This document shows positions 498 through 12,192 of a DNA stretch of 43,945 bases, piece by piece. Numbering within the stretch: position 1 is the stretch's first letter; each line of letters opens with the position of its first letter. The stretch is from the sequence record NC_073063.1, one strand, 5' to 3'. Under the pieces are notes generated by a model. It made no database searches. It worked only from the letters and a program-made list of their open reading frames with translations, and was not told the DNA's origin. The DNA comes from Escherichia phage vB_EcoS_PNS1. A program made the translations under genes and the position numbers.

Positions 498-3137
498 ATG
501 GCAGATCAGGCAGCGGGCATCACGCTCAAGGCGGACGTCGCGCAAATTAAAACGGCTAATACTGTGCTGGACACATTTGCGCAGAAATCCGAGAACACAG
601 AACAGAAAGTAAAGAAATTAAACGACACACTTGGCAAGTCGAAAAAGGTTACTGGCGACGCTGCTGGCGGAATGGAAAAGTTAGCGACTGAATCGCAGCG
701 CGCCGCCGACGGCATGACGAAACAGGAGCGACTCGCCAGCCGATTAGGCATGTCGACCAAAAACCTGGGATTCGCATCGCGGAACGCCGCATTCCAGTTA
801 CAGGATATCGCGGTAACGCTTGAGATGGGTATGCCGGTGCATCGAGTCATGCTTCAGCAGCTACCGCAGCTTACTGGGGCGTTTGGCGGGTTGGGGAATA
901 CGCTGCGTTATGTCGTCGGCACACTCGGCCCGTTAGGGATCGGCATCGCTGCATTAACGGCAACGATGGGCGTAGGCGTGGCGATTATGTCCCGCGCGGA
1001 AAACCAAGTGGCGGCGCTTAACAAGACGCTGGCGCTGTCCGGTAATATTTCTGGCCTAACAGCTAACCAGATACTGGTGCTATCCGAGAACGCCGAGCGG
1101 ATGGGCGGATCATTCCGCAAGACGCGTGACACAATTCAGTCACTGGCGGCGGCTGGTGTGAAAGCTGGTGCGGACTTCGGCGCACTGGCGAAGGTAGTGA
1201 ATGACTTCTCGAAGGTATCCAGCCAGCCGATCGAAGATGTGGTCGCGGCGGTGGCGAAGCTGTCAACCGACCCGGTAGGAGGCTTGCGCGCACTGGCGGA
1301 TAAGTATCACGTCGTAAACGAAGCGCAGATCCAGCAGGTGCAGTCGTTGGTGGATATGGGCCGCGAGACAGACGCAGTTGCGTTGGCTAACAAAACTGCC
1401 GCCGCGTCGTTCACCACTATGACCAACGATATTAAGGCCAACATGGGCACGCTTGAGCGGTCGATGAACGTCGTCACATCGGCAGCTAAATCCATGTGGG
1501 ATGCCATCCTGGATGTGGGCCGCGCGCAGTCCTCCAATGAGTCCGAGATGAAAGCGCGCGAATCACTACAGCGCATGACCACTGCTTACTATGCCGAGAT
1601 GAAAGCGGTAAACGCTGCCGGTGGGGTAATGACTGAAGCGCAGAAAGCACGTATTAACATGCTTTACAGCGAACTGGTCGCCCAGGAAAAAGTGGTGGCG
1701 TCGCTCACCCTGCGTAACCGTGCCGAGCGAGACAACGCCCGCGCCGCAGACGAATCCGCAAAGGCGAACGAGGAGGCCAACCGCACCGCCCGTGACCGAG
1801 CCGCGTTTGAAAAGGAGTACGCAACTAACGCTAAAAAACGCGCCGACGAGATCGCCCGCCTCAATTTGCTGAATAAGCGCGGCGTTATTGATGAGAAAGA
1901 GCTTGCCGAGGCGGTGAAGCAGGTAAACGAGCGCTACAAAGACCCCGCCCCGAAGAAGGCCGCGGCTGTTCGCGTGGATGCCGGTATGAAAATGCTGGAA
2001 GTCGCGCGGAGCGAACTGGCCCAGCTTCGAGAATCCGGCAAGCAGATCGAAGCCAACGCGTCTACGCAGACCCGCACGCAACGCGCTCAAGCGGCCTTAA
2101 ACAAGCTGATCGCCGACAATGAGCAGTTAATTGCTGCGAGCAAAGAAAGAGCGCTAACGGCAGCCGAAAAGCAGCAGATGGCCGAATTCGGACGCGTGAA
2201 GGAAGTGCGCGAGCAGATCGTCGAAGAAGCTAAATTGCTGGACGCGAAAGAGAAGCAGGTTAAGGCGCACGCGCAGATCGATGCCTTCGTTAAGAACCAG
2301 AACGCTGAACTAAAAGCCACCGCCGCGGGCTATGCGCTTTCCACTCGAGAAGCGGCAAACCTGCGTGAAGAATTGCAGCTAATCGACCGCCTGAAGCGTG
2401 TTGGCGCTAACGATACCGATATTGACAAGGCGGTGTCTAAGTTGCGGGAAGTGCAGGAGGCGCAGACCGGTGCTAACGCCTCGCTATGGGATGGCTTCAG
2501 CCGCGGGCTTAAGGATAGCGTGGATGAAATGGGTAACGGATATACGCAGATGGCGTCGCTCACGAAATTTACATTCAGCGCTATGCAAGACTCGATGAAC
2601 GAGTTTTTCGAGACGGGCAAGATTAACGCGAAGGATATGGTCAAATCCATCCTGAGCGAGTTAATCAAGCTGGCTACCTCGCAGGCGTTCAAGTCCATCG
2701 TTGGCGCTTTCGGTGGTGGCGGCAAAAACGGATTGTTCGGCGCTATCTTCTCTGGCCTCACTAAGAATGCGGACGGAGGAGCGTACGCAGGAGGAAATCT
2801 AGCGGCCTATTCGGGTCAGGTGGTAAGCCAGCCTACCTTTTTCAGTTATGGCGTCCAGGCGTTCGCTAAGGGCGCAGGATTGATGGGTGAGGCTGGACCC
2901 GAGGCCATCATGCCACTGAAGCGCGGGCCGGACGGGAAACTGGGCGTTGCCGCGTCTGGCGCAGGCGGTGGTATGGTCGTGACGACTAACGTTTACACGG
3001 GGGCCGGTAAAACGGATACCAGTGTCAGCGGGCCAGACCCCCGTACCGCGCAGGCGTTCGGCAAGCAAATCACCGAAGCGGTGAAGGCTGAGATCGTGAA
3101 AGCGACGAAACCGGGTGGAGTACTGTACAAACGATGA
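498..3137 (+). CDS. tail tape measure protein
   Basis: 879 aa, Ala/Gln/Lys-rich helical protein with Gly-rich C-terminus; sits between chaperone G/G-T and distal tail genes; RBS aaggggg before ATG. Confidence 0.9.
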   Translation: MADQAAGITLKADVAQIKTANTVLDTFAQKSENTEQKVKKLNDTLGKSKKVTGDAAGGMEKLATESQRAADGMTKQERLASRLGMSTKNLGFASRNAAFQLQDIAVTLEMGMPVHRVMLQQLPQLTGAFGGLGNTLRYVVGTLGPLGIGIAALTATMGVGVAIMSRAENQVAALNKTLALSGNISGLTANQILVLSENAERMGGSFRKTRDTIQSLAAAGVKAGADFGALAKVVNDFSKVSSQPIEDVVAAVAKLSTDPVGGLRALADKYHVVNEAQIQQVQSLVDMGRETDAVALANKTAAASFTTMTNDIKANMGTLERSMNVVTSAAKSMWDAILDVGRAQSSNESEMKARESLQRMTTAYYAEMKAVNAAGGVMTEAQKARINMLYSELVAQEKVVASLTLRNRAERDNARAADESAKANEEANRTARDRAAFEKEYATNAKKRADEIARLNLLNKRGVIDEKELAEAVKQVNERYKDPAPKKAAAVRVDAGMKMLEVARSELAQLRESGKQIEANASTQTRTQRAQAALNKLIADNEQLIAASKERALTAAEKQQMAEFGRVKEVREQIVEEAKLLDAKEKQVKAHAQIDAFVKNQNAELKATAAGYALSTREAANLREELQLIDRLKRVGANDTDIDKAVSKLREVQEAQTGANASLWDGFSRGLKDSVDEMGNGYTQMASLTKFTFSAMQDSMNEFFETGKINAKDMVKSILSELIKLATSQAFKSIVGAFGGGGKNGLFGAIFSGLTKNADGGAYAGGNLAAYSGQVVSQPTFFSYGVQAFAKGAGLMGEAGPEAIMPLKRGPDGKLGVAASGAGGGMVVTTNVYTGAGKTDTSVSGPDPRTAQAFGKQITEAVKAEIVKATKPGGVLYKR

Positions 3138-3144
3138 TAAAATG

Positions 3145-3173
3145 GCCCCCACAACCATCGTGGGGGCTTTTCT
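3145..3173 (+). terminator. hairpin plus T-run after tape measure gene (probable attenuator)
   Basis: Stem gcccccac/gtgggggc with 7-nt loop followed by ttttct, immediately before ATG at 3174. Confidence 0.45.
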
Positions 3174-3773
3174 ATGTCACAAGGTACAATCACACTAACG
3201 AACGGAAGTAAGACCGTAACGGGCGCTGGAACGGCGTTCCTTAGCGAGATCGGGAAGGTCCGCGTATTCGCCCGCATCGACGGCAACGACTACACCGGCA
3301 AAATAGCCGCATTCAACTCTGACACTGAAATCACCCTGGCGGATAACTGGGCCGGTCCAACTAAATCAGGTGCGGCATATGAGCTAATCGAAGCACACGA
3401 CCCGCGATCAAACGAATGGCCCTATTACTGGCACATGCAATTGCAGGGCGGCGGCGACGTGCAGTTGGCTTTCCGGTCGGAGGAATTGCAATTCGGTAAC
3501 GGTTACGGTCAGAACATCGCGGACGGCCCGAACGCCGAAACGAAACAGTTCCCCGTGCAATTCATAGGGCTTACTACTGACAAGTGGTGCAATCCCAAAC
3601 TGGTTTACAACTTCCTTCGCGGGCACTTCGTAAAGCCGTTTGTCGTCACCGCGCCGGATGGCGAAACCGGTTTATTCGTGGTCGAGCGTTCGAGCTTGTC
3701 GTACACAGACAACGGGCACTACACGGCAACGGTATCCGCAACCCTTAAAACTGCTATTGGATTCGTAAGATGA
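3174..3773 (+). CDS. minor/distal tail protein (lambda gpM position)
   Basis: First gene after tape measure; N-terminus shares a motif with the tail fiber at 10079. Confidence 0.6.
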   Translation: MSQGTITLTNGSKTVTGAGTAFLSEIGKVRVFARIDGNDYTGKIAAFNSDTEITLADNWAGPTKSGAAYELIEAHDPRSNEWPYYWHMQLQGGGDVQLAFRSEELQFGNGYGQNIADGPNAETKQFPVQFIGLTTDKWCNPKLVYNFLRGHFVKPFVVTAPDGETGLFVVERSSLSYTDNGHYTATVSATLKTAIGFVR

Positions 3774-4558
3774 ATAAACTATATCGTGAGGCGACGCGCT
3801 TTGACCCATCGGGCCGAGTTCGCCTGATTCATATTGACGCGCAGGACGTGGAGCCAGGCGACGGCGCGATCGGAGCGGGCCATCACTATTTTCATTACTG
3901 CTTTATCCCGCACACTGCCGAGGATATTGCTGCCGCTGGGGGTGACGAGGATAAGCTGAAGCCAAAATCCATCTTCTTCGGCGGGCAGGAGTTCGAATTT
4001 TGGCCCTTCGATCTGTCAGGCCTCAACTTCTCCACATCGACGGCAGCGGAACCGCAACTAACAATCGTCGATATTGGAGGCATAATCACCCGGCTGTCGC
4101 TGAATCACGACCAGCTACTGGGCGCGAAGGTTGAGATCATTGATACGTTCGCGAAGTTCCTGGACAACGGGACAGACCCAGACCCGACGCAGAAACGAGT
4201 TCAGGAGTATTACATCGACTCGCAGGTCGGGCGCAATCCAGGCAAGCAGATCACCTTCGCCCTATCCTCACCTGCGGATATGGAAGGGCAGGTCGTTCCC
4301 CGTCGCCAAATCATGAATATGTGCGAATGGGCGCTCAACGGGAAGTATGCCAGCGGTGACGGGTGTACGTGGAACCTTGCGCAGCCAGGCATCAAGTATT
4401 ACGACGAGCGTGGTAATGAAGTCATCGCGATGAATATGGACCGATGCGGCGGCTGTTTGTCCGACTGCTATCTTCGTTTTGGCCAGGGGCTTGCCGACCC
4501 GAAAGCTGCGGTGCTGGACTTCGGTGGTTTTCCAGGGTCCAAATTGATTAAGGGGTAG
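3770..4558 (+). CDS. minor tail protein, lambda gpL-like
   Basis: Synteny, plus C-terminal cysteine cluster (DRCGGCLSDC) as in the Fe-S-binding gpL family. Confidence 0.8.
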   Translation: MNKLYREATRFDPSGRVRLIHIDAQDVEPGDGAIGAGHHYFHYCFIPHTAEDIAAAGGDEDKLKPKSIFFGGQEFEFWPFDLSGLNFSTSTAAEPQLTIVDIGGIITRLSLNHDQLLGAKVEIIDTFAKFLDNGTDPDPTQKRVQEYYIDSQVGRNPGKQITFALSSPADMEGQVVPRRQIMNMCEWALNGKYASGDGCTWNLAQPGIKYYDERGNEVIAMNMDRCGGCLSDCYLRFGQGLADPKAAVLDFGGFPGSKLIKG

Positions 4559-4560
4559 CC

Positions 4561-5301
4561 ATGTTAACGAAAAAGGTTAAAAGCGATATCGCCGCGCACG
4601 TTGCGGCATGTCTTCCGGAAGAAGCCTGTGGGCTGGTAGTCATGGTGGGCCGCAAACAAGTATTCGTCCCATGTATGAACGTATTCGAAGACCCGACCGG
4701 CGTGCGCTCACGCAAGGACGCGTTTACTATTAGTGATATGGCCTGGATGGATGCCGAGGATATGGGCGACGTCGTGCGCGTAGTCCACTCCCATCCGGGG
4801 CAGCGGGAGCTTACCCCATCGCTTGGCGACGTTAACGGATGCAACGGCAGCGGCGTAGTCTGGACCATCACTAACGAATATGGCGACTTTATCGAGATCG
4901 ACCCTGAAGACCCGCCGCTGGTAGGGCGTCGATTTGTTCTCGGAATTACGGATTGTTACGGCCTCGTCATGGACTGGCACAAAAAGCAGGGAGTAAACCT
5001 GCCAGACTTCCGCGTGCCGTATAACTGGTGGGAGACAGGCGAAAACCTGTATATGGACAATTGGTACGGTGCGGGATTCAGGGAATGCGAGGAGAATACG
5101 CCGGGGGCAATGGTCATCATGCAGATTAGCGCGCCTGTGCCTAACCACGCTGGGATATTCCTTCCGGGCAACCAACTACTACACCATATCTACGGCAGTC
5201 TGTCGAGTGTGATACCCTTCCGGTCAGGATTTTTCCGCGACAATGTGGTTAAATGGGTACGTCATAAAGACCTACCGGGGGATATCACAGAATGGCAATG
5301 A
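4561..5301 (+). CDS. tail tip protein, lambda gpK-like (JAB/MPN plus NlpC/P60-like)
   Basis: VVHSHPG JAMM-like motif; synteny between L-like and I-like genes. Confidence 0.8.
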   Translation: MLTKKVKSDIAAHVAACLPEEACGLVVMVGRKQVFVPCMNVFEDPTGVRSRKDAFTISDMAWMDAEDMGDVVRVVHSHPGQRELTPSLGDVNGCNGSGVVWTITNEYGDFIEIDPEDPPLVGRRFVLGITDCYGLVMDWHKKQGVNLPDFRVPYNWWETGENLYMDNWYGAGFRECEENTPGAMVIMQISAPVPNHAGIFLPGNQLLHHIYGSLSSVIPFRSGFFRDNVVKWVRHKDLPGDITEWQ

Positions 5302-5909
5302 CCACGTTTAAATTATACGGCGTTTTAGGACGTCGATTCGGTAAAGTGCATAAGCTGGATTGCTTCACTCCTGGCGAGGGTATCACCGGCCTGTGCGTGA
5401 AGTTACCCGGCTTACAGGACTTTCTAATGTCGGCCCACCTGGACAATATGATGTTCAAGGTGCGCAAAGGCGACCACACGATGACCGGCTATGATGAGTT
5501 GGGCGAGTTCCACGGCAACCGCGTAGTTACCATCGCGCCGGTTATGACGGGCGCAAAAAGAGGTCTGGGCCAATTGCTGGCGGGTGTGGTAATAGTGGTG
5601 GCGTCGTTCTATACCGGCGGACTTGCTACCGCCGCTTTCGGGGCTTCGGCTGCAACCGCTGCCGCTATTGGGACAGCGACGTTTTCGTTCGGCATGTCGC
5701 TTGCGCTGGGCGGTGCTATGCAATTGCTGTCCCCACAGCCGAAAGGATTGCAGACACGGCAGGACGTGGATAACAAAGCGTCGTATGCGTTCGGCGGACC
5801 GGTAAACACGACCGCACAAGGTACGGCACTTGGTGTATTATGGGGCGAGCGTGAGATCGGCGGCGCTATTATTTCAGCCGGAATCGTAACCGAGGACTTA
5901 AACGAATGA
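5292..5909 (+). CDS. tail assembly protein, lambda gpI-like
   Basis: Synteny directly upstream of J-like gene; Gly/Ala-rich hydrophobic C-terminal half. Confidence 0.7.
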   Translation: MAMTTFKLYGVLGRRFGKVHKLDCFTPGEGITGLCVKLPGLQDFLMSAHLDNMMFKVRKGDHTMTGYDELGEFHGNRVVTIAPVMTGAKRGLGQLLAGVVIVVASFYTGGLATAAFGASAATAAAIGTATFSFGMSLALGGAMQLLSPQPKGLQTRQDVDNKASYAFGGPVNTTAQGTALGVLWGEREIGGAIISAGIVTEDLNE

Positions 5910-8900
5910 CGATTGTATACGACGTCACAGGCCATAAAGGCGGCGGAGGCAAACAGCACACCCCACAGGAGACGCCAGATAGCCTGCATTCGCTGGCTAA
6001 AATCCGCATCTTGCTTGCGCTGGGGGAAGGGGAATTCGAAGGCATTACGAGCGCCAGCGAATTACGGCAGCGCGTATATCTGGACGGAACACCGATCCAG
6101 AATGCAGATCTGTCTGAAAACTTCCCCGGAGCGCGCGTGGAGTTCCGCCCCGGCACACAGCACCAGGATGTGATCCACGGATTTTCAGCGGTGGAAAGTG
6201 AGCAATCCGTCGGTGTAAAACTGGAAAACGGTACGCCGTGGGTGCGCCAGATTAACGACACCAGTCTTGACGCCGTGCGCGTTCGCATCGGCATTCCTGC
6301 CCTGTACACTAGCGAAGATAATGGCGACCTGGTGGGTGGGCGCATCGACTATAAGATCGTTGTGTATACGGATAACGCCGACCCGCGTGAGTTTACCTTC
6401 GCTGCCGTTGGTAAAACAATGTCTCTATACGAGCGCGATCACCGCATCGAGCTACCGCCGAACGTTAACACGGGCTGGCGCGTGGAGGTGCACCGCATAA
6501 CGGCAGACTCCACATCGGCAAAAGTGGTTAACAATATCCGGGTGCAATCTATTACTGAGATTATCGACGCCCGTCTTCGATACCCGCTAACCGCGCTGTT
6601 GTTCGTGGAGTTCGACGCTAAAGCGTTCCAGAACATCCCGCGCGTGTCCATCAAGTGCAAAGGCCGCAAAGTTCTAATACCTAACAACTACGACCCTATT
6701 AATCATACCTATTCGGGGGACTGGGACGGCACGTTCAAACGTGCATGGACGGATAACCCTGCGTGGCACTGGTACGATATTTGTATTACTGAGCGCTTCG
6801 GCCTCGGTCGTCGGATCAAACCGCAAATGCTGAACCGGTACGCGCTCTACCAGATCGCGCAGCGCTGCGATCAGTTGGTCAGCGACGGCAACGGCGGACG
6901 GGAAATCCGATTTAAGAATGATATGTACATCCAGTCGCAGACAGACGCCTGGACCGTGCTTAAGGATTTAGCTGCCATCTTCGCCGGGATGACCTGGTGG
7001 GGAAACCAAATGTTGAATATCGTCAGTGACCAACCGGTCGCAGCAGTGTCGCACACTATCACCAACGCCTCGGTAATTGATGGGCGATTCGACTACGCAT
7101 CCGGCAGCCAGAAAACTCGGTATTCAACTTTCGCGGTCGCATACGGCAACCCGAAAAACCACTATGATGACGCTATCGCAACGGGCCAGCGCGTCGAACT
7201 GGTACGCCGCCATAAGATAAACCGTCTTGATATCACAGCGATCGGCTGTACGCGCGAGTCAGAAGCGCAACGCCGAGGGCACTGGGCGCTAATCTCAAAC
7301 CAGCTTGATCAGCAAGTTAGTTTTAAGGTTGGCATGGAGGGGTTATTCTTTATCCCCGGTAGCGTAGTCGCGATCGCAGATACTAATATATCCGGCGGAT
7401 TCGAGACTCGCGGCGGTCGCCTGTTGTCAGACCCTGGAACGCGTACCGTGCTTAACACAGACAGCGAAATCACATTCCGCCCTGGTGATAAGTTCTTGGT
7501 GCGCACCGATAGCGGAAATGTGGAGACTCGCGAGATCGCCAGCGTCAACGGCAACAAGGTCACGCTAAAAACCGCACTGGATGCCGACCCGATTCCAGAC
7601 CAACCGTTTTGCGTTGATGGCGACGATATCCAGTTGCAAAAATTCCGCATCACCGACCTGGAATATGACGACTCTACGAGCACTTTCTCAGTGCGCGGGA
7701 TTGAATACAACGATAGTAAGTATGATGCCGTTGATAATGGCGCTCGCCTTGACCCAGGCATCTTTACGCAAGTGCCGGACGGTGTAATGAAGGGGCCGGA
7801 ATCCGTGACCATCACCCCGTCGCAGATCTCATCGCAAGGCCAGCTAATCACCAACGTGGATATTGTTTTCCCGCCGGTGAAAGATGCCGTGGTGTATGAA
7901 ATCCAGTGGAGGCGTACTAGCCTGCAGAATATGGAGATCCAGTGGGGTAACGACTGGGTGAATATCCCGCGCACGGCGTCGAATGGGGCGCACATTCCTA
8001 ACGTGTTCTCCGGTAACTATCAGGCACGAGTCCGCGCAATTGGCATGGGCGAAATCTCGTCCCCGTGGGTGTCTTCCGCGGTCACGCCGGTGGAAGGTCG
8101 CCTCGGTGGGCTTAACGCCCCAATCATCACCAACGCGATTTCGGGTCTGCATCAAATTCTATGGAAGTGGAATCACAACAACGCTGCGACTGATATCTCA
8201 TACACCGAGCTTGAAGTGCGCAAGACGGGTGAAACGGAATGGAAATTCTTAACAAACGTCCCATATCCTGGCGCGGAGTACGCGCAAACGTCGCTGGAGT
8301 TCGGCATATACCAGCAGTTGCGCGCCCGTGTAGCGGATAAAATCGGCAACCTGTCTGACTGGTCCGCCCCGTTCGAAGGCCAGGTGAGTGACAAAGTTGA
8401 CGAGTACATGAAGGGGCTTGATGACGAGTTCTTGACTTCCGAGGACGGTAAACGCTTCCAGGAAGCGATCGAAACCATGCCGCAAGGCATTTATGAAGCC
8501 ATGCTCACCGACGCGCAGCAATTGTTCAACGCCCGCGCCGAGTACAAGGGTATCTATGCGGAAATCTCGGTCGCGTATAACGTGGCGTCGGACGCCCACA
8601 AGGCGGTCGCTCAACTGGAGACGTTGATCGGCACGCGACTTGACGATGCGGAAGCGGCGATCCACACGTTGCAGACAGCGCAAAGCACGCACGAACAAGC
8701 GTTCGCCCAGTACCAGCAAACTGTTGCCGCTAAGTTCGGGGAGCAGGAAGCCGCCATCCAGCAGGTGCAAACGGCAACGGCAGACGTAGCGGGCGCGCTG
8801 GCGGAGTACAAGACCCAGGTCGCGGCACAGTTCGGTCAGCAGTCCGCCGCTATCGAGCAGAAGATGACGTCCACGTTTAACCATGCCGGTGGCAACGCCA

Positions 8901-9721
8901 CATACAGCCTTAAGGCGGGCGTGACGTATAACGGGACTTACTACGATGCCGGTATGCAGCTTTCAGTTGTTGCGGAAGGTGGCGCGGTTAAATCCCGCAT
9001 CGCGTTCAAGGCGGACCAGTTCTACATTATGCACCCGTCGAATGGGTCGCTTTCGTCCGCGTTTATCGTCGACGGCGGGCAGGTGTATATCGACACGGCA
9101 CGAATCAAGGACGCCTCCATCAACTTTGCACAGATCACGGACACGCTACAATCCAACAACTGGATTCCAGGGAGCAGGGGTTGGCGTATCGCGAAAGACG
9201 GAGGAGCGGAGTTTAACGCAGTAACGGTACGCGGCAACGTGTATGCGAATGATGGCGTGTTTAATGGTACGGTTTATGCAAGGGATGGTGTATTTACCGG
9301 AACGGTCGAAGCTACCAGCTTTGTCGGGGATATCGCCAATATGTATGTTATTGGCGAGAAAGCGATACCCAACACAGATAGGAATGGGTCGAGATCGTGG
9401 TCGGTGACTTTCAACGACTCGTCCAGGTCATCTAAACTCAAAGACTTTGTGTTGCTGTTAAGTTACTCACTGGTCGGGTATACCGCAAACCGGTCAAGTC
9501 GCATAGTGGTTACTGCCAATATTGGCGGGCATGTAGTCTCGAGGTCCATTGAGCGAGCGGCAAGCGGAAACTCAATCCATACGACGATTCCATTAGCTGT
9601 GAAGGGCGTGGCACAGGGAAGTGTACGAATTACAGTTACGGAAAAGTATACAAACGTCTACAGCAGTACATTGCACCCGTCTGTAATATTGATGACCAGA
9701 GGTACTGGTAGCTGGTCGTAA
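5906..9721 (+). CDS. central tail fiber / host specificity protein, lambda gpJ-like
   Basis: 1271 aa; N-terminal and central regions recall lambda J; conserved position after I-like gene. Confidence 0.9.
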   Translation: MTIVYDVTGHKGGGGKQHTPQETPDSLHSLAKIRILLALGEGEFEGITSASELRQRVYLDGTPIQNADLSENFPGARVEFRPGTQHQDVIHGFSAVESEQSVGVKLENGTPWVRQINDTSLDAVRVRIGIPALYTSEDNGDLVGGRIDYKIVVYTDNADPREFTFAAVGKTMSLYERDHRIELPPNVNTGWRVEVHRITADSTSAKVVNNIRVQSITEIIDARLRYPLTALLFVEFDAKAFQNIPRVSIKCKGRKVLIPNNYDPINHTYSGDWDGTFKRAWTDNPAWHWYDICITERFGLGRRIKPQMLNRYALYQIAQRCDQLVSDGNGGREIRFKNDMYIQSQTDAWTVLKDLAAIFAGMTWWGNQMLNIVSDQPVAAVSHTITNASVIDGRFDYASGSQKTRYSTFAVAYGNPKNHYDDAIATGQRVELVRRHKINRLDITAIGCTRESEAQRRGHWALISNQLDQQVSFKVGMEGLFFIPGSVVAIADTNISGGFETRGGRLLSDPGTRTVLNTDSEITFRPGDKFLVRTDSGNVETREIASVNGNKVTLKTALDADPIPDQPFCVDGDDIQLQKFRITDLEYDDSTSTFSVRGIEYNDSKYDAVDNGARLDPGIFTQVPDGVMKGPESVTITPSQISSQGQLITNVDIVFPPVKDAVVYEIQWRRTSLQNMEIQWGNDWVNIPRTASNGAHIPNVFSGNYQARVRAIGMGEISSPWVSSAVTPVEGRLGGLNAPIITNAISGLHQILWKWNHNNAATDISYTELEVRKTGETEWKFLTNVPYPGAEYAQTSLEFGIYQQLRARVADKIGNLSDWSAPFEGQVSDKVDEYMKGLDDEFLTSEDGKRFQEAIETMPQGIYEAMLTDAQQLFNARAEYKGIYAEISVAYNVASDAHKAVAQLETLIGTRLDDAEAAIHTLQTAQSTHEQAFAQYQQTVAAKFGEQEAAIQQVQTATADVAGALAEYKTQVAAQFGQQSAAIEQKMTSTFNHAGGNATYSLKAGVTYNGTYYDAGMQLSVVAEGGAVKSRIAFKADQFYIMHPSNGSLSSAFIVDGGQVYIDTARIKDASINFAQITDTLQSNNWIPGSRGWRIAKDGGAEFNAVTVRGNVYANDGVFNGTVYARDGVFTGTVEATSFVGDIANMYVIGEKAIPNTDRNGSRSWSVTFNDSSRSSKLKDFVLLLSYSLVGYTANRSSRIVVTANIGGHVVSRSIERAASGNSIHTTIPLAVKGVAQGSVRITVTEKYTNVYSSTLHPSVILMTRGTGSWS

Positions 9722-9726
9722 TAAAC

Positions 9727-9752
9727 AAAAAACCCCTCACGCGAGGGGTTAA
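9727..9752. terminator. bidirectional rho-independent terminator between J gene and convergent lipoprotein gene
   Basis: Stem aacccctc/gaggggtt with A-run upstream and T-run downstream. Confidence 0.5.
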
Positions 9753-9755
9753 CTT

Positions 9756-9998
9756 TTAATAATCAATGACGCAGTTTGAAGGCGAACCAATCCTTCGGTG
9801 TTCGTGGCTAATCTCCTGGCACCACTGACCCGTATAAGGTAGCTTTTCGGTATCGTAAACCAAAGACCCGTCTTCATGTCGCTCAATAGGCTGAGGTATT
9901 ACACCCGAATTTGGAACGCCTGTGTTTACGCCATTGCCACATGCTGTCATCAGAAGGCACGCCGCGGGTATTATCAGATTTTTGATTAAAGTTTTCAT
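9756..9998 (-). CDS. small lipoprotein, candidate Cor/Llp-like superinfection exclusion protein
   Basis: Internal ATG at 9998 with GGAG RBS gives 80 aa starting MKTLIKNLIIPAACLLMTAC (signal peptide plus lipobox-like Cys); sits between J and tail fiber genes. Confidence 0.55.
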   Translation of the reverse strand: MKTLIKNLIIPAACLLMTACGNGVNTGVPNSGVIPQPIERHEDGSLVYDTEKLPYTGQWCQEISHEHRRIGSPSNCVIDY

Positions 9999-10078
9999 GG
10001 TATAATCTCCGGTATTGGGTTGAGTTTTAGTATTACACCGCTCAATCAAGAATGCAACCAATTTAAGAGGATTTAGCT

Positions 10079-11581
10079 ATGGCAGCGGGTACGCTCTCTG
10101 TAACGAATAACAGCAAGGCGGTTGTCGGGGTAGGCACGGCGTTTACCTCGTTTACAGCTGGCGACTTCTTAACGCTGGTGGTGGGGCAAGTGCCCTACAC
10201 TGTTGCGATCGCGTCCGTCGAAAGCGACACCGCGCTTACGCTTGTGCTGCCGTTCGACGGCCCAACGGCAACGGGACTCGCCTGGGACGGCATCAAACGT
10301 GACACCATGTCACTTGCAACGATGGGCGTGACCGTCCAGGCGCAGAAAGCGCTACGCTTGATGATGGCGGATGAAAACAACTGGCGTGCAATCTTCGGCG
10401 ACGCTGAAGAAATCACCGTTACGCTGCCCAGCGGGCAAGTTATGCAGGGTATGTCATGGGGCTACCTGTCATCCTTGCTGAAGGACGTTGACCCCGTTGA
10501 GATGCGCAACCTGCAACAACAAGCCACCGCATCTGAAGCCGCAGCGCAGGGATTTCGCGATCAGGCCGAGGAGTGGGCGAAAAGCGTAAATGCGGATAAT
10601 CTGCTAACAAAATCCGGCAACCTGGCGGGCCTGGCTGACCAATCGGCGGCACGCGTCAATCTCGGTCTTGACCGCCTCGAGCAGTCTACATATGACACTA
10701 GACTTTTTGACGCTTCAGGCGGCTATTACTTCTTTATTGCAGATTCTGATTGGGGGTGTGTCCATAATACTGCCCCGGATTATCCACGCATTGCGTTACC
10801 AGTAGCCAGTGGTGGAACTGGGGGAACAACAGAGTATTCAGCGTGTCAAAATCTACGTGCGCTCAACTGTGCCTATGATATCAACACAAATTACGGTTCT
10901 GAACAATTGTATACAGGTATCGGATTTTACGGCCGAGATGTGTCACCGCAGCCTGGGGGTGACGGCGGGCCTTTCGGCTGGGCCGAGATTATGACAATTG
11001 CGGAGGGGGGTGGTGGCCCTGGATCGGTGGGTAACTGGTCACAGATCGGTTTTTCCACTGCCGCCTCACAGGCCCCGCGCTACCGTCAACGCATAGCCAA
11101 CCCGGGGCAGGTTACTAACTGGCGGGATTTCTTAATTCGTGACCTAAACACCACTGTTGACAGCAACGGTTTTATTAAAATCGCATCCCCTATTGTGAAA
11201 ATCAAAGGTGACGGGACCGCAGAGTTTAACGACGAGTCCGAAGGTTGCTCTGTAACACGGGTGTCCAAAGGTGTTTATGTAATATCGGGTTGTCTGGGCC
11301 TCAATTCCGACGCGTCATGGGGCGGGGTCAATGGCGGCTTTGAGATACCGGTAGATGTAAACAAGCAACCTTTGTTGTGGCTGGATTATGAAGTATTGGA
11401 TGAGGGAAGTATTGAGATTCGCACCTACCACCGCACGCATACTAACGCGCCTAAGTTCGCGAGAAATATTATTGACGGTATCGAAGACGGCGATCCGATA
11501 GATATCCCACCAAGCACCTACATCTCTGTTAGGGTGCAAATGCCCACAACAGGATTGGAAACAGCCACGAGTAGTGCGTAG
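10079..11581 (+). CDS. tail fiber protein
   Basis: 500 aa Gly/Ser/Thr-rich protein downstream of J module; RBS agagga. Confidence 0.7.
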   Translation: MAAGTLSVTNNSKAVVGVGTAFTSFTAGDFLTLVVGQVPYTVAIASVESDTALTLVLPFDGPTATGLAWDGIKRDTMSLATMGVTVQAQKALRLMMADENNWRAIFGDAEEITVTLPSGQVMQGMSWGYLSSLLKDVDPVEMRNLQQQATASEAAAQGFRDQAEEWAKSVNADNLLTKSGNLAGLADQSAARVNLGLDRLEQSTYDTRLFDASGGYYFFIADSDWGCVHNTAPDYPRIALPVASGGTGGTTEYSACQNLRALNCAYDINTNYGSEQLYTGIGFYGRDVSPQPGGDGGPFGWAEIMTIAEGGGGPGSVGNWSQIGFSTAASQAPRYRQRIANPGQVTNWRDFLIRDLNTTVDSNGFIKIASPIVKIKGDGTAEFNDESEGCSVTRVSKGVYVISGCLGLNSDASWGGVNGGFEIPVDVNKQPLLWLDYEVLDEGSIEIRTYHRTHTNAPKFARNIIDGIEDGDPIDIPPSTYISVRVQMPTTGLETATSSA

Positions 11582-11587
11582 CGCTGG

Positions 11588-11618
11588 AAAAAGGGCCATA
11601 AGGCCCTTTTTTTTTTTT
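11588..11618. terminator. bidirectional rho-independent terminator between convergent operons
   Basis: Stem aaagggcc/ggcccttt flanked by A-run and an 11-nt T-run. Confidence 0.6.
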
Positions 11619-12192
11619 AGTTTGAGTTTTCCCAGTCCATTTTTCGCCGCACCAGTGGGCTTTCGTAATATTCCTTACCTTCAACTTCCACTAAAGGCCA
11701 ATCGTTCACGATCACGTATGGCTCTGCTATATCCTCAATAACACCGTGCGCGCTATGCTGCCCGAACGACACACCGACCAGAATAACACCGGCAACTCGA
11801 CGAGCAAGATACTCGCGAGCGCAACGTGCCTCGACCAGTCCTCGACGGATGCCGCTGGTGGCCTTAACCTCGTAGGCCCATACGGCATCGACCACATGCT
11901 CGCGGAAGTCGGGACCGGACTTCACCTTGCGCTTTCCAACCATGATAATATCGCCGCGGTCAATGGTGTTGGCACTAAACAGGCCGGTACGCATCAGTAA
12001 GCCTTGCGGGATACAACTACGCCCGCCAGCCTGACCCTCAAGGTACATTCCTGCAAACATCTCGCCCAGCACACCGACAAGACGGCTTTGCTTGCACGCG
12101 TCAGACTTTAGGCGCCACTGGTCAAACTCGATGCTTGCTATCATTGCCGCCAGATGGAATTGTTTACCTGATATTTCATATTCGCCGTACAT
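11617..12192 (-). CDS. hypothetical protein, possible PD-(D/E)XK-type nuclease
   Basis: 191 aa; GPD...x13...EVK arrangement resembles PD-(D/E)XK core; GAGGA RBS; last gene of minus-strand operon. Confidence 0.35.
   Translation of the reverse strand: MYGEYEISGKQFHLAAMIASIEFDQWRLKSDACKQSRLVGVLGEMFAGMYLEGQAGGRSCIPQGLLMRTGLFSANTIDRGDIIMVGKRKVKSGPDFREHVVDAVWAYEVKATSGIRRGLVEARCAREYLARRVAGVILVGVSFGQHSAHGVIEDIAEPYVIVNDWPLVEVEGKEYYESPLVRRKMDWENSN

Follow-up and report, generated by a model that had tools for sequence, protein, structure and literature searches.

The window analyzed here, a 43,945-nt stretch of the genome of Escherichia phage vB_EcoS_PNS1 (NC_073063.1), represents a Dhillonvirus-type coliphage, sharing 91–93% nucleotide identity over positions 3000–12000 with phages such as JL1, SECphi4 and Maverick, and contains a lambda-like tail module. 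On the plus strand, the tape-measure gene (498–3137), the first of the tail genes listed, is followed by the gene for a 199-aa protein at the gpM position (3174–3773) and then by gpL (3770–4558; PF05100; 262 aa, the short form), gpK (4561–5301), gpI (5292–5909) and gpJ (5906–9721; 1271 aa), an order that bears out the gpM position originally assigned. Among the window ORFs, no second gpM gene was found between the tape-measure gene and gpL; gpL matches PDB chain 23gd_C (Hub protein gp21) and is the partner of gpM in a swappable M-L cassette (see below). A small lipoprotein gene on the minus strand lies between gpJ and the long plus-strand ORF of the lateral tail fiber (10079–11581; 500 aa). 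The 199-aa protein begins with MSQGTITLTNGSKTVTGAGTAFLSEIGKV (3174–3260) and the fiber with MAAGTLSVTNNSKAVVGVGTAFTSFTAGD (10079–10165).

Within the 36 nt that separate the gpM start (3174) from the tape-measure stop (3137) lies a strong terminator-like hairpin (3144–3168, plus strand; GGCCCCCAC...GTGGGGGCT, then TTTTCT; -18.5 kcal/mol, z = -3.7), and the G-run in its 3' arm is the sole Shine-Dalgarno-like sequence upstream of the gpM ATG. A putative terminator is annotated at the equivalent site in WFI and WF5505. In some Dhillonviruses, the gpM start is annotated at an upstream GTG (L001, 11944–12600; L016, 9962–10600), giving versions of 212–218 aa that translate through the hairpin and overlap the end of the tape-measure gene; the 199-aa form, starting with MSQGT or MAQGT, is used by the solved chain (see below) and most records. 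The WF5505 gpM (L013, 10001–10600) reads GRRSWS at residues 20–24 versus the conserved GTAFLS, which looks like the product of two frameshifts that compensate each other, or like a sequencing error in that record. Two records, OQ221563.1 (Acinetobacter phage NJ01) and MG065648.1 (Campylobacter phage A144), show about 91% nucleotide identity to the window's tail region, which suggests a misattributed host or coliphage contamination.

The original prediction was that the N-termini of the 199-aa protein and the fiber share about 14 of 27 residues, and this count is exact (14/27 identical). The pairwise alignment runs well past these residues, since BLASTP with compositional adjustment aligned residues 1–73 of the two proteins with no gaps, 29 identities and 42 positives (E = 1e-10). 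The BLOSUM62 scores were 70 for the 27-mer (z = 7.2) and 119 for the 73-mer (z = 9.9), and in neither case did any of 1,000,000 composition-preserving shuffles of the fiber segment equal the score or the identity. When the whole window was scanned in six frames, no site other than the fiber N-terminus resembled the gpM N-terminus, the next-best 27-mer scoring 36. Although G, T, S, A and V are abundant in both segments, a chance or compositional likeness of two Gly/Thr-rich N-termini is refuted to near certainty by the shuffles, the scan and the composition-adjusted BLASTP, as well as by a profile tying both segments to one family (E = 3.8e-22) and by the identical predicted strand patterns of the two domains. 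As judged from sequence, the resemblance is confirmed as real homology.

For both N-termini, AF2 predicted a small beta-barrel with strands in matching register, in line with the common domain originally proposed. The barrel of gpM (aa 1–73; 3174–3392, plus strand; delimited by BLASTP, AF2 and the fiber-anchor profile) was modeled at pLDDT 85–97, with strands at residues 5–8, 14–18, 28–35, 38–49, 52–55, 64–67 and 69–73; that of the fiber (aa 1–73; 10079–10297, plus strand; BLASTP and AF2 register) has strands at 5–8, 14–18, 30–35, 38–49, 52–55, 64–67 and 69–72. Past aa 73, the AF2 confidence of gpM falls, being low over aa 75–121 of the monomer. Here a linker of about seven residues (EAHDPRS, aa 74–80; 3393–3413, plus strand; located by AF2 and by alignment with gpMs having no barrel, hereafter plain gpMs) leads to the gpM core (aa 81–199 and the stop codon; 3414–3773, plus strand; PF05939, phmmer and Foldseek). 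The core opens with a WPYYW motif where plain gpMs begin, their start MDIWPYWW aligning with aa 80–87 of the window protein (NEWPYYWH).

In the fiber, the barrel is followed by a stem (10298–10483, plus strand; AF2 and phmmer) made up of a long helix of about 30 residues (aa 74–105) and a beta-hairpin (aa 112–124), which is absent from gpM. A phmmer search with fiber aa 73–150 returned 34 fiber representatives with this stem right behind the barrel. A barrel followed by a stem helix, the arrangement expected of an anchor, is therefore found in the fiber (helix 74–105) and not in gpM, and since gpM has no stem helix, it is a carrier of the barrel and not a fiber. The boundary at aa 73/74 is where engineers could part the fiber anchor from the stem. 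The C-terminal domain of the fiber (aa 357–489; 11147–11545, plus strand) is a swappable tip matching PF25670 (E = 4.3e-59) and the SU10 fiber 7z47_D (E = 5e-58). A check of whether relatives carry the shared fiber N-terminus on exchanged C-terminal domains showed that they do: JLBYU60, bov11C2 and N15 gp25 have Peptidase_S74-type tips on the common N-terminal ~145 residues.

By domain content and homology, the 199-aa protein is a genuine gpM (distal tail protein, or Dit) with about 80 extra N-terminal residues. Its assignment is based on i) the match of aa 86–187 to PF05939 (Phage_min_tail; 44.3 bits, the cut-off being 39; E = 2.7e-11), ii) its gene position, and iii) homology to solved tail tips: from end to end it shares about 95% identity with PDB 23gd_B (Distal tail protein gp20; E = 5.9e-131), the T1 tail-tip chain 9l9p_H is matched by its core (phmmer E = 6.5e-12; Foldseek E = 3.5e-4), and it also matches the F2-pyocin distal tail protein weakly. 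The nearest barrel-less proteins are gpMs of 122–125 aa, to which its core is 56–66% identical. The presence of two gp20 chains in 23gd is consistent with 6 copies under C3 symmetry, and we propose that the protein forms a hexameric ring between the tail tube and the tail tip. PHROG 9922 is a family of full-length 199-aa proteins, so the gene that fuses the barrel to gpM is stable, not an artifact of annotation. An internal start giving a plain gpM was rejected, since the sole internal Met (aa 88) would delete the conserved WPYYW motif.

The original prediction had also suggested that the protein might not be a canonical M protein but a fiber-like receptor-binding accessory. Its N-terminus does match several PHROG tail-fiber families; however, a PF05939 gpM domain that passes the gathering score and is homologous to solved distal tail proteins makes up its C-terminal 115 residues, it has no fiber stem helix, shaft or receptor-binding domain, and no other gpM gene is available between the tape-measure gene and gpL. 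This suggestion is consequently very improbable. The unnamed barrel nevertheless draws gpM into "tail fiber" families, which is an annotation problem.

The 23gd entry, a Dhillonvirus tail tip with chain names following the BASEL annotation of Dhillonviruses, was compared by sequence and chain names. Its chain B has 199 aa and includes the N-terminal barrel, and its gp21 (gpL) and J-like tail tip protein gp24 match the gpL and gpJ of the window; it differs in that the deposited chains include no homologue of the window's fiber. Our literature search found no paper describing 23gd or any Dhillonvirus structure. A paper on Avs-1 (PMC13612043) that mentions a "distal tail protein gp20" was considered as the source and rejected, since the way its genes are numbered (insertion protein gp21, hub gp23 and spike gp43) does not fit and its phage must thus differ from that of 23gd.

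Searching PDB sequences with a profile of the fiber N-terminus gave only two matches, 23gd_B (aa 1–74, E = 3.8e-22) and the F2-pyocin side fiber 25ve_A (aa 5–75, E = 4.6e-10); gpM by itself matched the latter at E = 0.0044. Both barrels of the window are thus homologous in sequence to the side-fiber anchor barrel of the PyoF13 and N15 gp25 type. No Pfam model covers the barrel. Foldseek of the predicted gpM returned neither the 23gd nor the F2-pyocin entries from a PDB library dated to 2026-04-08, these being presumably later releases. A HMMER search with the window region 3174–3410 (E ≤ 1e-3) placed the barrel in about 1445 representative protein clusters. Copy numbers were counted by local hmmsearch over the best 150 of these ~1445 representatives: 70 have one N-terminal copy (fibers), 45 have two copies, 36 have 3–14 tandem copies and 8 have a single internal copy. 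The two-copy proteins are about 330–380 aa long, and one of them (P0031) has, in addition, a match to the SU10-adaptor (head-tail adaptor) domain of Pfam; the tandem-barrel proteins are of 1–3 kaa, and at least two (P0015 and P0017) also have PKD domains. Within the best 150, fusion of the barrel to a gpM domain was seen in the Dhillonvirus cluster only. Judged by these matches, the barrel is a large mobile family, best known as the first domain of side fibers and tailspikes.

The gpM barrels form a clade of their own, being about 26–46% identical to every fiber barrel, whereas the fiber barrels (from other Dhillonviruses, N15 gp25 and metagenomic relatives) are 51–96% identical to one another. 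This separation indicates that the fusion is old and not a recent copy of the resident fiber. A recent intragenomic duplication of the fiber N-terminus was likewise rejected, as the gpM barrel is 39% identical to the barrel of its own fiber, 41% to that of N15 gp25 and 48% to that of the Erwinia phage Midgardsormr38 fiber. In nine Dhillonviruses, the pooled dN/dS was 0.24 for the gpM barrel and 0.05 for the gpM core, and 0.14 for the fiber barrel and 0.07 for the fiber stem; variable sites numbered 41 of 75 in the gpM barrel versus 19 of 124 in the core. An apparent tenfold faster evolution of the gpM barrel than of the fiber barrel, seen with three genomes, shrank to 0.24 versus 0.14 with nine, and only the contrast between the gpM barrel and the gpM core, in which the barrel evolves faster, is robust. 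As the gpM barrel and core have similar dS, import from a distant lineage was rejected as the cause of the barrel's divergence. Pairwise divergences of the gpM and fiber barrels were uncorrelated among the nine genomes (Mantel r = 0.007, p = 0.43). Segments 22–40 and 66–80 of the gpM barrel are nearly invariant while the remaining segments vary, a pattern suggesting that one face is buried and one exposed.

Several relatives have a plain gpM. L002 is a true Dhillonvirus, its tape-measure protein, gpK, gpI and gpJ being 98%, 99%, 98% and 97% identical to those of the window and residues 1–145 of its fiber 94% identical; it encodes a plain gpM (123 aa) and a gpL with an insertion of about 150 residues. 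L006 resembles it in having a plain gpM and a long gpL, while L005 has both a plain gpM and a plain gpL, yet has a fiber with this anchor. Outside this group, the N15 gp25 fiber co-occurs with a plain gpM of 115 aa and the F2 pyocin fibers with a distal tail protein of 113 aa. The long gpL is of 415 aa (L002, 10362–11609; also L003, L004, L006 and L007), with its insertion after residue ~57; neither Pfam nor PHROG gave a match for this insertion, whose sole resemblance is to part of the R4C "Megatron protein" (8gtc_M, aa 502–617, E = 1.6e-4). As the flanking genes are 97–99% identical to those of the window, the M-L region behaves like an exchanged cassette. As far as gene content tells, the natural variants show the gpM barrel to be dispensable. 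However, it is present in 156/156 cultured Dhillonvirus records, none of which has a plain gpM; it is therefore strongly retained, and growth in the laboratory could require it.

The side fibers of F2 and F7 pyocins, which have a homologous N-domain, attach to the shaft of the central fiber, and by cryo-EM this N-domain belongs to the region of attachment (PMC13455828, PMC12874032). In the F2-pyocin work, the barrel region is named the OB domain, likened to the decorating domain of T5 pb9, and described as helping to hold three fiber trimers on the central fiber, at its coiled-coil shaft. Each trimer contributes two barrels to a pseudo-sixfold ring, while its third barrel lies at the periphery. 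In the window, gpJ aa 7–860 are homologous to the F2-pyocin central fiber (25vf_A, E = 1.7e-224), and a coiled-coil stretch further on (aa 892–987; 8579–8866, plus strand), the candidate shaft for the fiber anchor, aligns weakly with shaft region 977–1072 of 25vf_A (E = 0.01). From this homology and the coiled coil at the corresponding position, the lateral fiber most likely docks on the gpJ coiled coil through its barrel and stem helix. The gpJ of the window has 1271 aa versus 1148 aa in JLBYU60, L002 and 23gd_D, identity ending near residue 1119, and the window has none of the downstream accessory genes of other Dhillonviruses (the two small plus-strand genes of JLBYU60, or DUF6453 elsewhere); the end of identity (C-terminal part from ~9263) and the missing genes suggest that the central-fiber tip module has been exchanged.

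The original prediction interpreted the shared motif as a common docking domain. As to origin, this held, given the homology to the F-pyocin anchor (E = 4.6e-10). A shared docking function is doubtful, because phages with a plain gpM keep the fiber anchor and because the two barrels do not co-vary. The fullest form of such a function would be a built-in dock, in which gpM, having captured a copy of the fiber anchor, supplies half of the fiber attachment ring by homotypic contacts, its barrels co-assembling with those of the fiber trimers into a mixed collar at the tube/tip junction; six gpM barrels and six fiber barrels (two per trimer from three trimers) would, for example, give a 12-membered ring. 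Such an arrangement would agree with the homology of the two barrels, with the lateral, pseudo-sixfold rings formed by the F2-pyocin barrel, with the 12-membered collars of Ur-lambda and T5 that sit exactly at the location of the gpM N-terminus, with the extensions of the JBD30 distal tail protein that help to hold fibers, and with the barrel in all 156 cultured Dhillonviruses. However, phages of the L002 type have a plain gpM, yet their fiber anchor and gpJ are 94% and 97% identical to those of the window; L005 (also plain in gpL), N15 and the F-pyocins all pair the anchor with a plain gpM; the divergences of the barrels are unrelated (r = 0.007); the gpM barrels stand apart at about 26–46% identity to fiber barrels that share 51–96%; and 23gd was deposited with no fiber chain. 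A homotypic docking partner is thus an unlikely role for the gpM barrel, although, if true, it would add a third mode of side-fiber attachment in lambda-like tails to the Stf/p132 collars and the F-pyocin shaft.

Somewhat better placed, but still improbable, is a structural brace, by which the barrels would touch the last tube ring or the neighboring gpM or gpL and be needed for joining the tip to the tube, with no part in host contact or fiber binding. The short linker keeps the barrel against the ring, the near invariance of residues 22–40 and 66–80 is consistent with one buried face, and all cultured isolates have kept the barrel. Against this, the tails of close relatives assemble with a plain gpM, as do those of lambda, T1, N15 and the F-pyocins, and more than half of the barrel sites vary within the genus.

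The reading we prefer, at a probability of roughly 0.55, is that the gpM barrel is an accessory peripheral decoration and that the fiber docks on the gpJ shaft. In the lambda tail, K2 and W6 of gpM are found on the outside of the gpV/gpM junction, where they touch the Stf collar. We suggest that gpM acquired the 73-residue barrel alone, with no stem helix, and that the linker of about seven residues would join it to a gpM N-terminus exposed, as in lambda, at the tube/gpM junction. With so short a linker, the six barrels would have to form a peripheral crown at this junction and could not reach the gpJ shaft, which makes contact of the gpM copy with the coiled coil of the central fiber implausible. 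With the crown as an exposed accessory, gpM would be a decorated Dit, as is T5 pb9. The crown would probably provide auxiliary surface contact or stabilize the junction; it would not be the obligatory dock of the lateral fiber, which would attach to the gpJ shaft instead.

Several points count against a decoration. The barrel is strongly retained (156/156 cultured records), the extra ~150-aa gpL domain in most plain-gpM variants might substitute for it, the fiber barrel also evolves fairly fast (dN/dS 0.14), and the co-variation test is limited to 9 genomes. Moreover, the extensions of distal tail proteins can form fiber attachment sites, as in JBD30, and there is no known case of this barrel binding host surface molecules.

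Whatever its role, the fusion is ordinary re-use of a phage module, and the protein is not of a new kind: gpM, decorated Dit and fiber anchor barrel are all known, and the PDB already contains a near-identical chain. It is a clean case of domain shuffling within one tail module, a fiber-anchor barrel having moved onto the distal tail protein, and it leaves the current understanding of siphophage tails unchanged. Our analysis further suggests that Dhillonvirus fibers may dock on the gpJ shaft in the manner of F-pyocins. The useful new lead is the natural polymorphism of the M-L cassette, whose two forms (barrel-gpM with short gpL, and plain gpM with long gpL) are a ready natural experiment on tail-tip decorations.

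Among known systems, the gpM of lambda and the distal tail protein of T1 (PF05939) occupy the equivalent gene position and have the equivalent core domain, but are of 109–117 aa and have no N-terminal domain, whereas 80 extra residues precede the core in the window. The decorated Dits (T5 pb9 with its OB-fold, and those of Chi and JBD30) are closer in plan, since gpM likewise combines a Dit core with a small extra beta-barrel or OB-like domain, presumably at the ring periphery; they differ in that pb9 has no detectable sequence similarity to gpM and that the extra domain of gpM is N-terminal and clearly homologous to fiber anchors. To our knowledge, the role of the pb9 OB domain is unsettled. 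The collars of Ur-lambda Stf and T5 p132 resemble the proposed crown in placing small beta domains around the tube/gpM junction, at the gpM N-terminus. However, they are built of Ig-like domains on separate proteins, as 12-mers, whereas the barrel is covalently part of gpM, six per tail, and no match to these Ig-like domains (Stf aa 1–94 and p132) was obtained in sequence searches (E ≤ 10) or among the fold-search matches listed (the best 50 of 886 and 60 of 3467). N15 gp25 and related siphophage lateral fibers have the barrel and the conserved stem, their barrels being 51–60% identical to that of the window fiber, but the gpM of N15 (gene 17, 115 aa) is plain. In the F-type pyocins (PyoF13; PA0643/PA0646), the side fibers carry the "OB" barrel, the window fiber shares their barrel-then-helix arrangement, and gpJ resembles the pyocin central fiber; the pyocins, however, have the barrel on the fiber only, together with a plain 113-aa distal tail protein, whereas the window phage has a second, stem-less copy on gpM.
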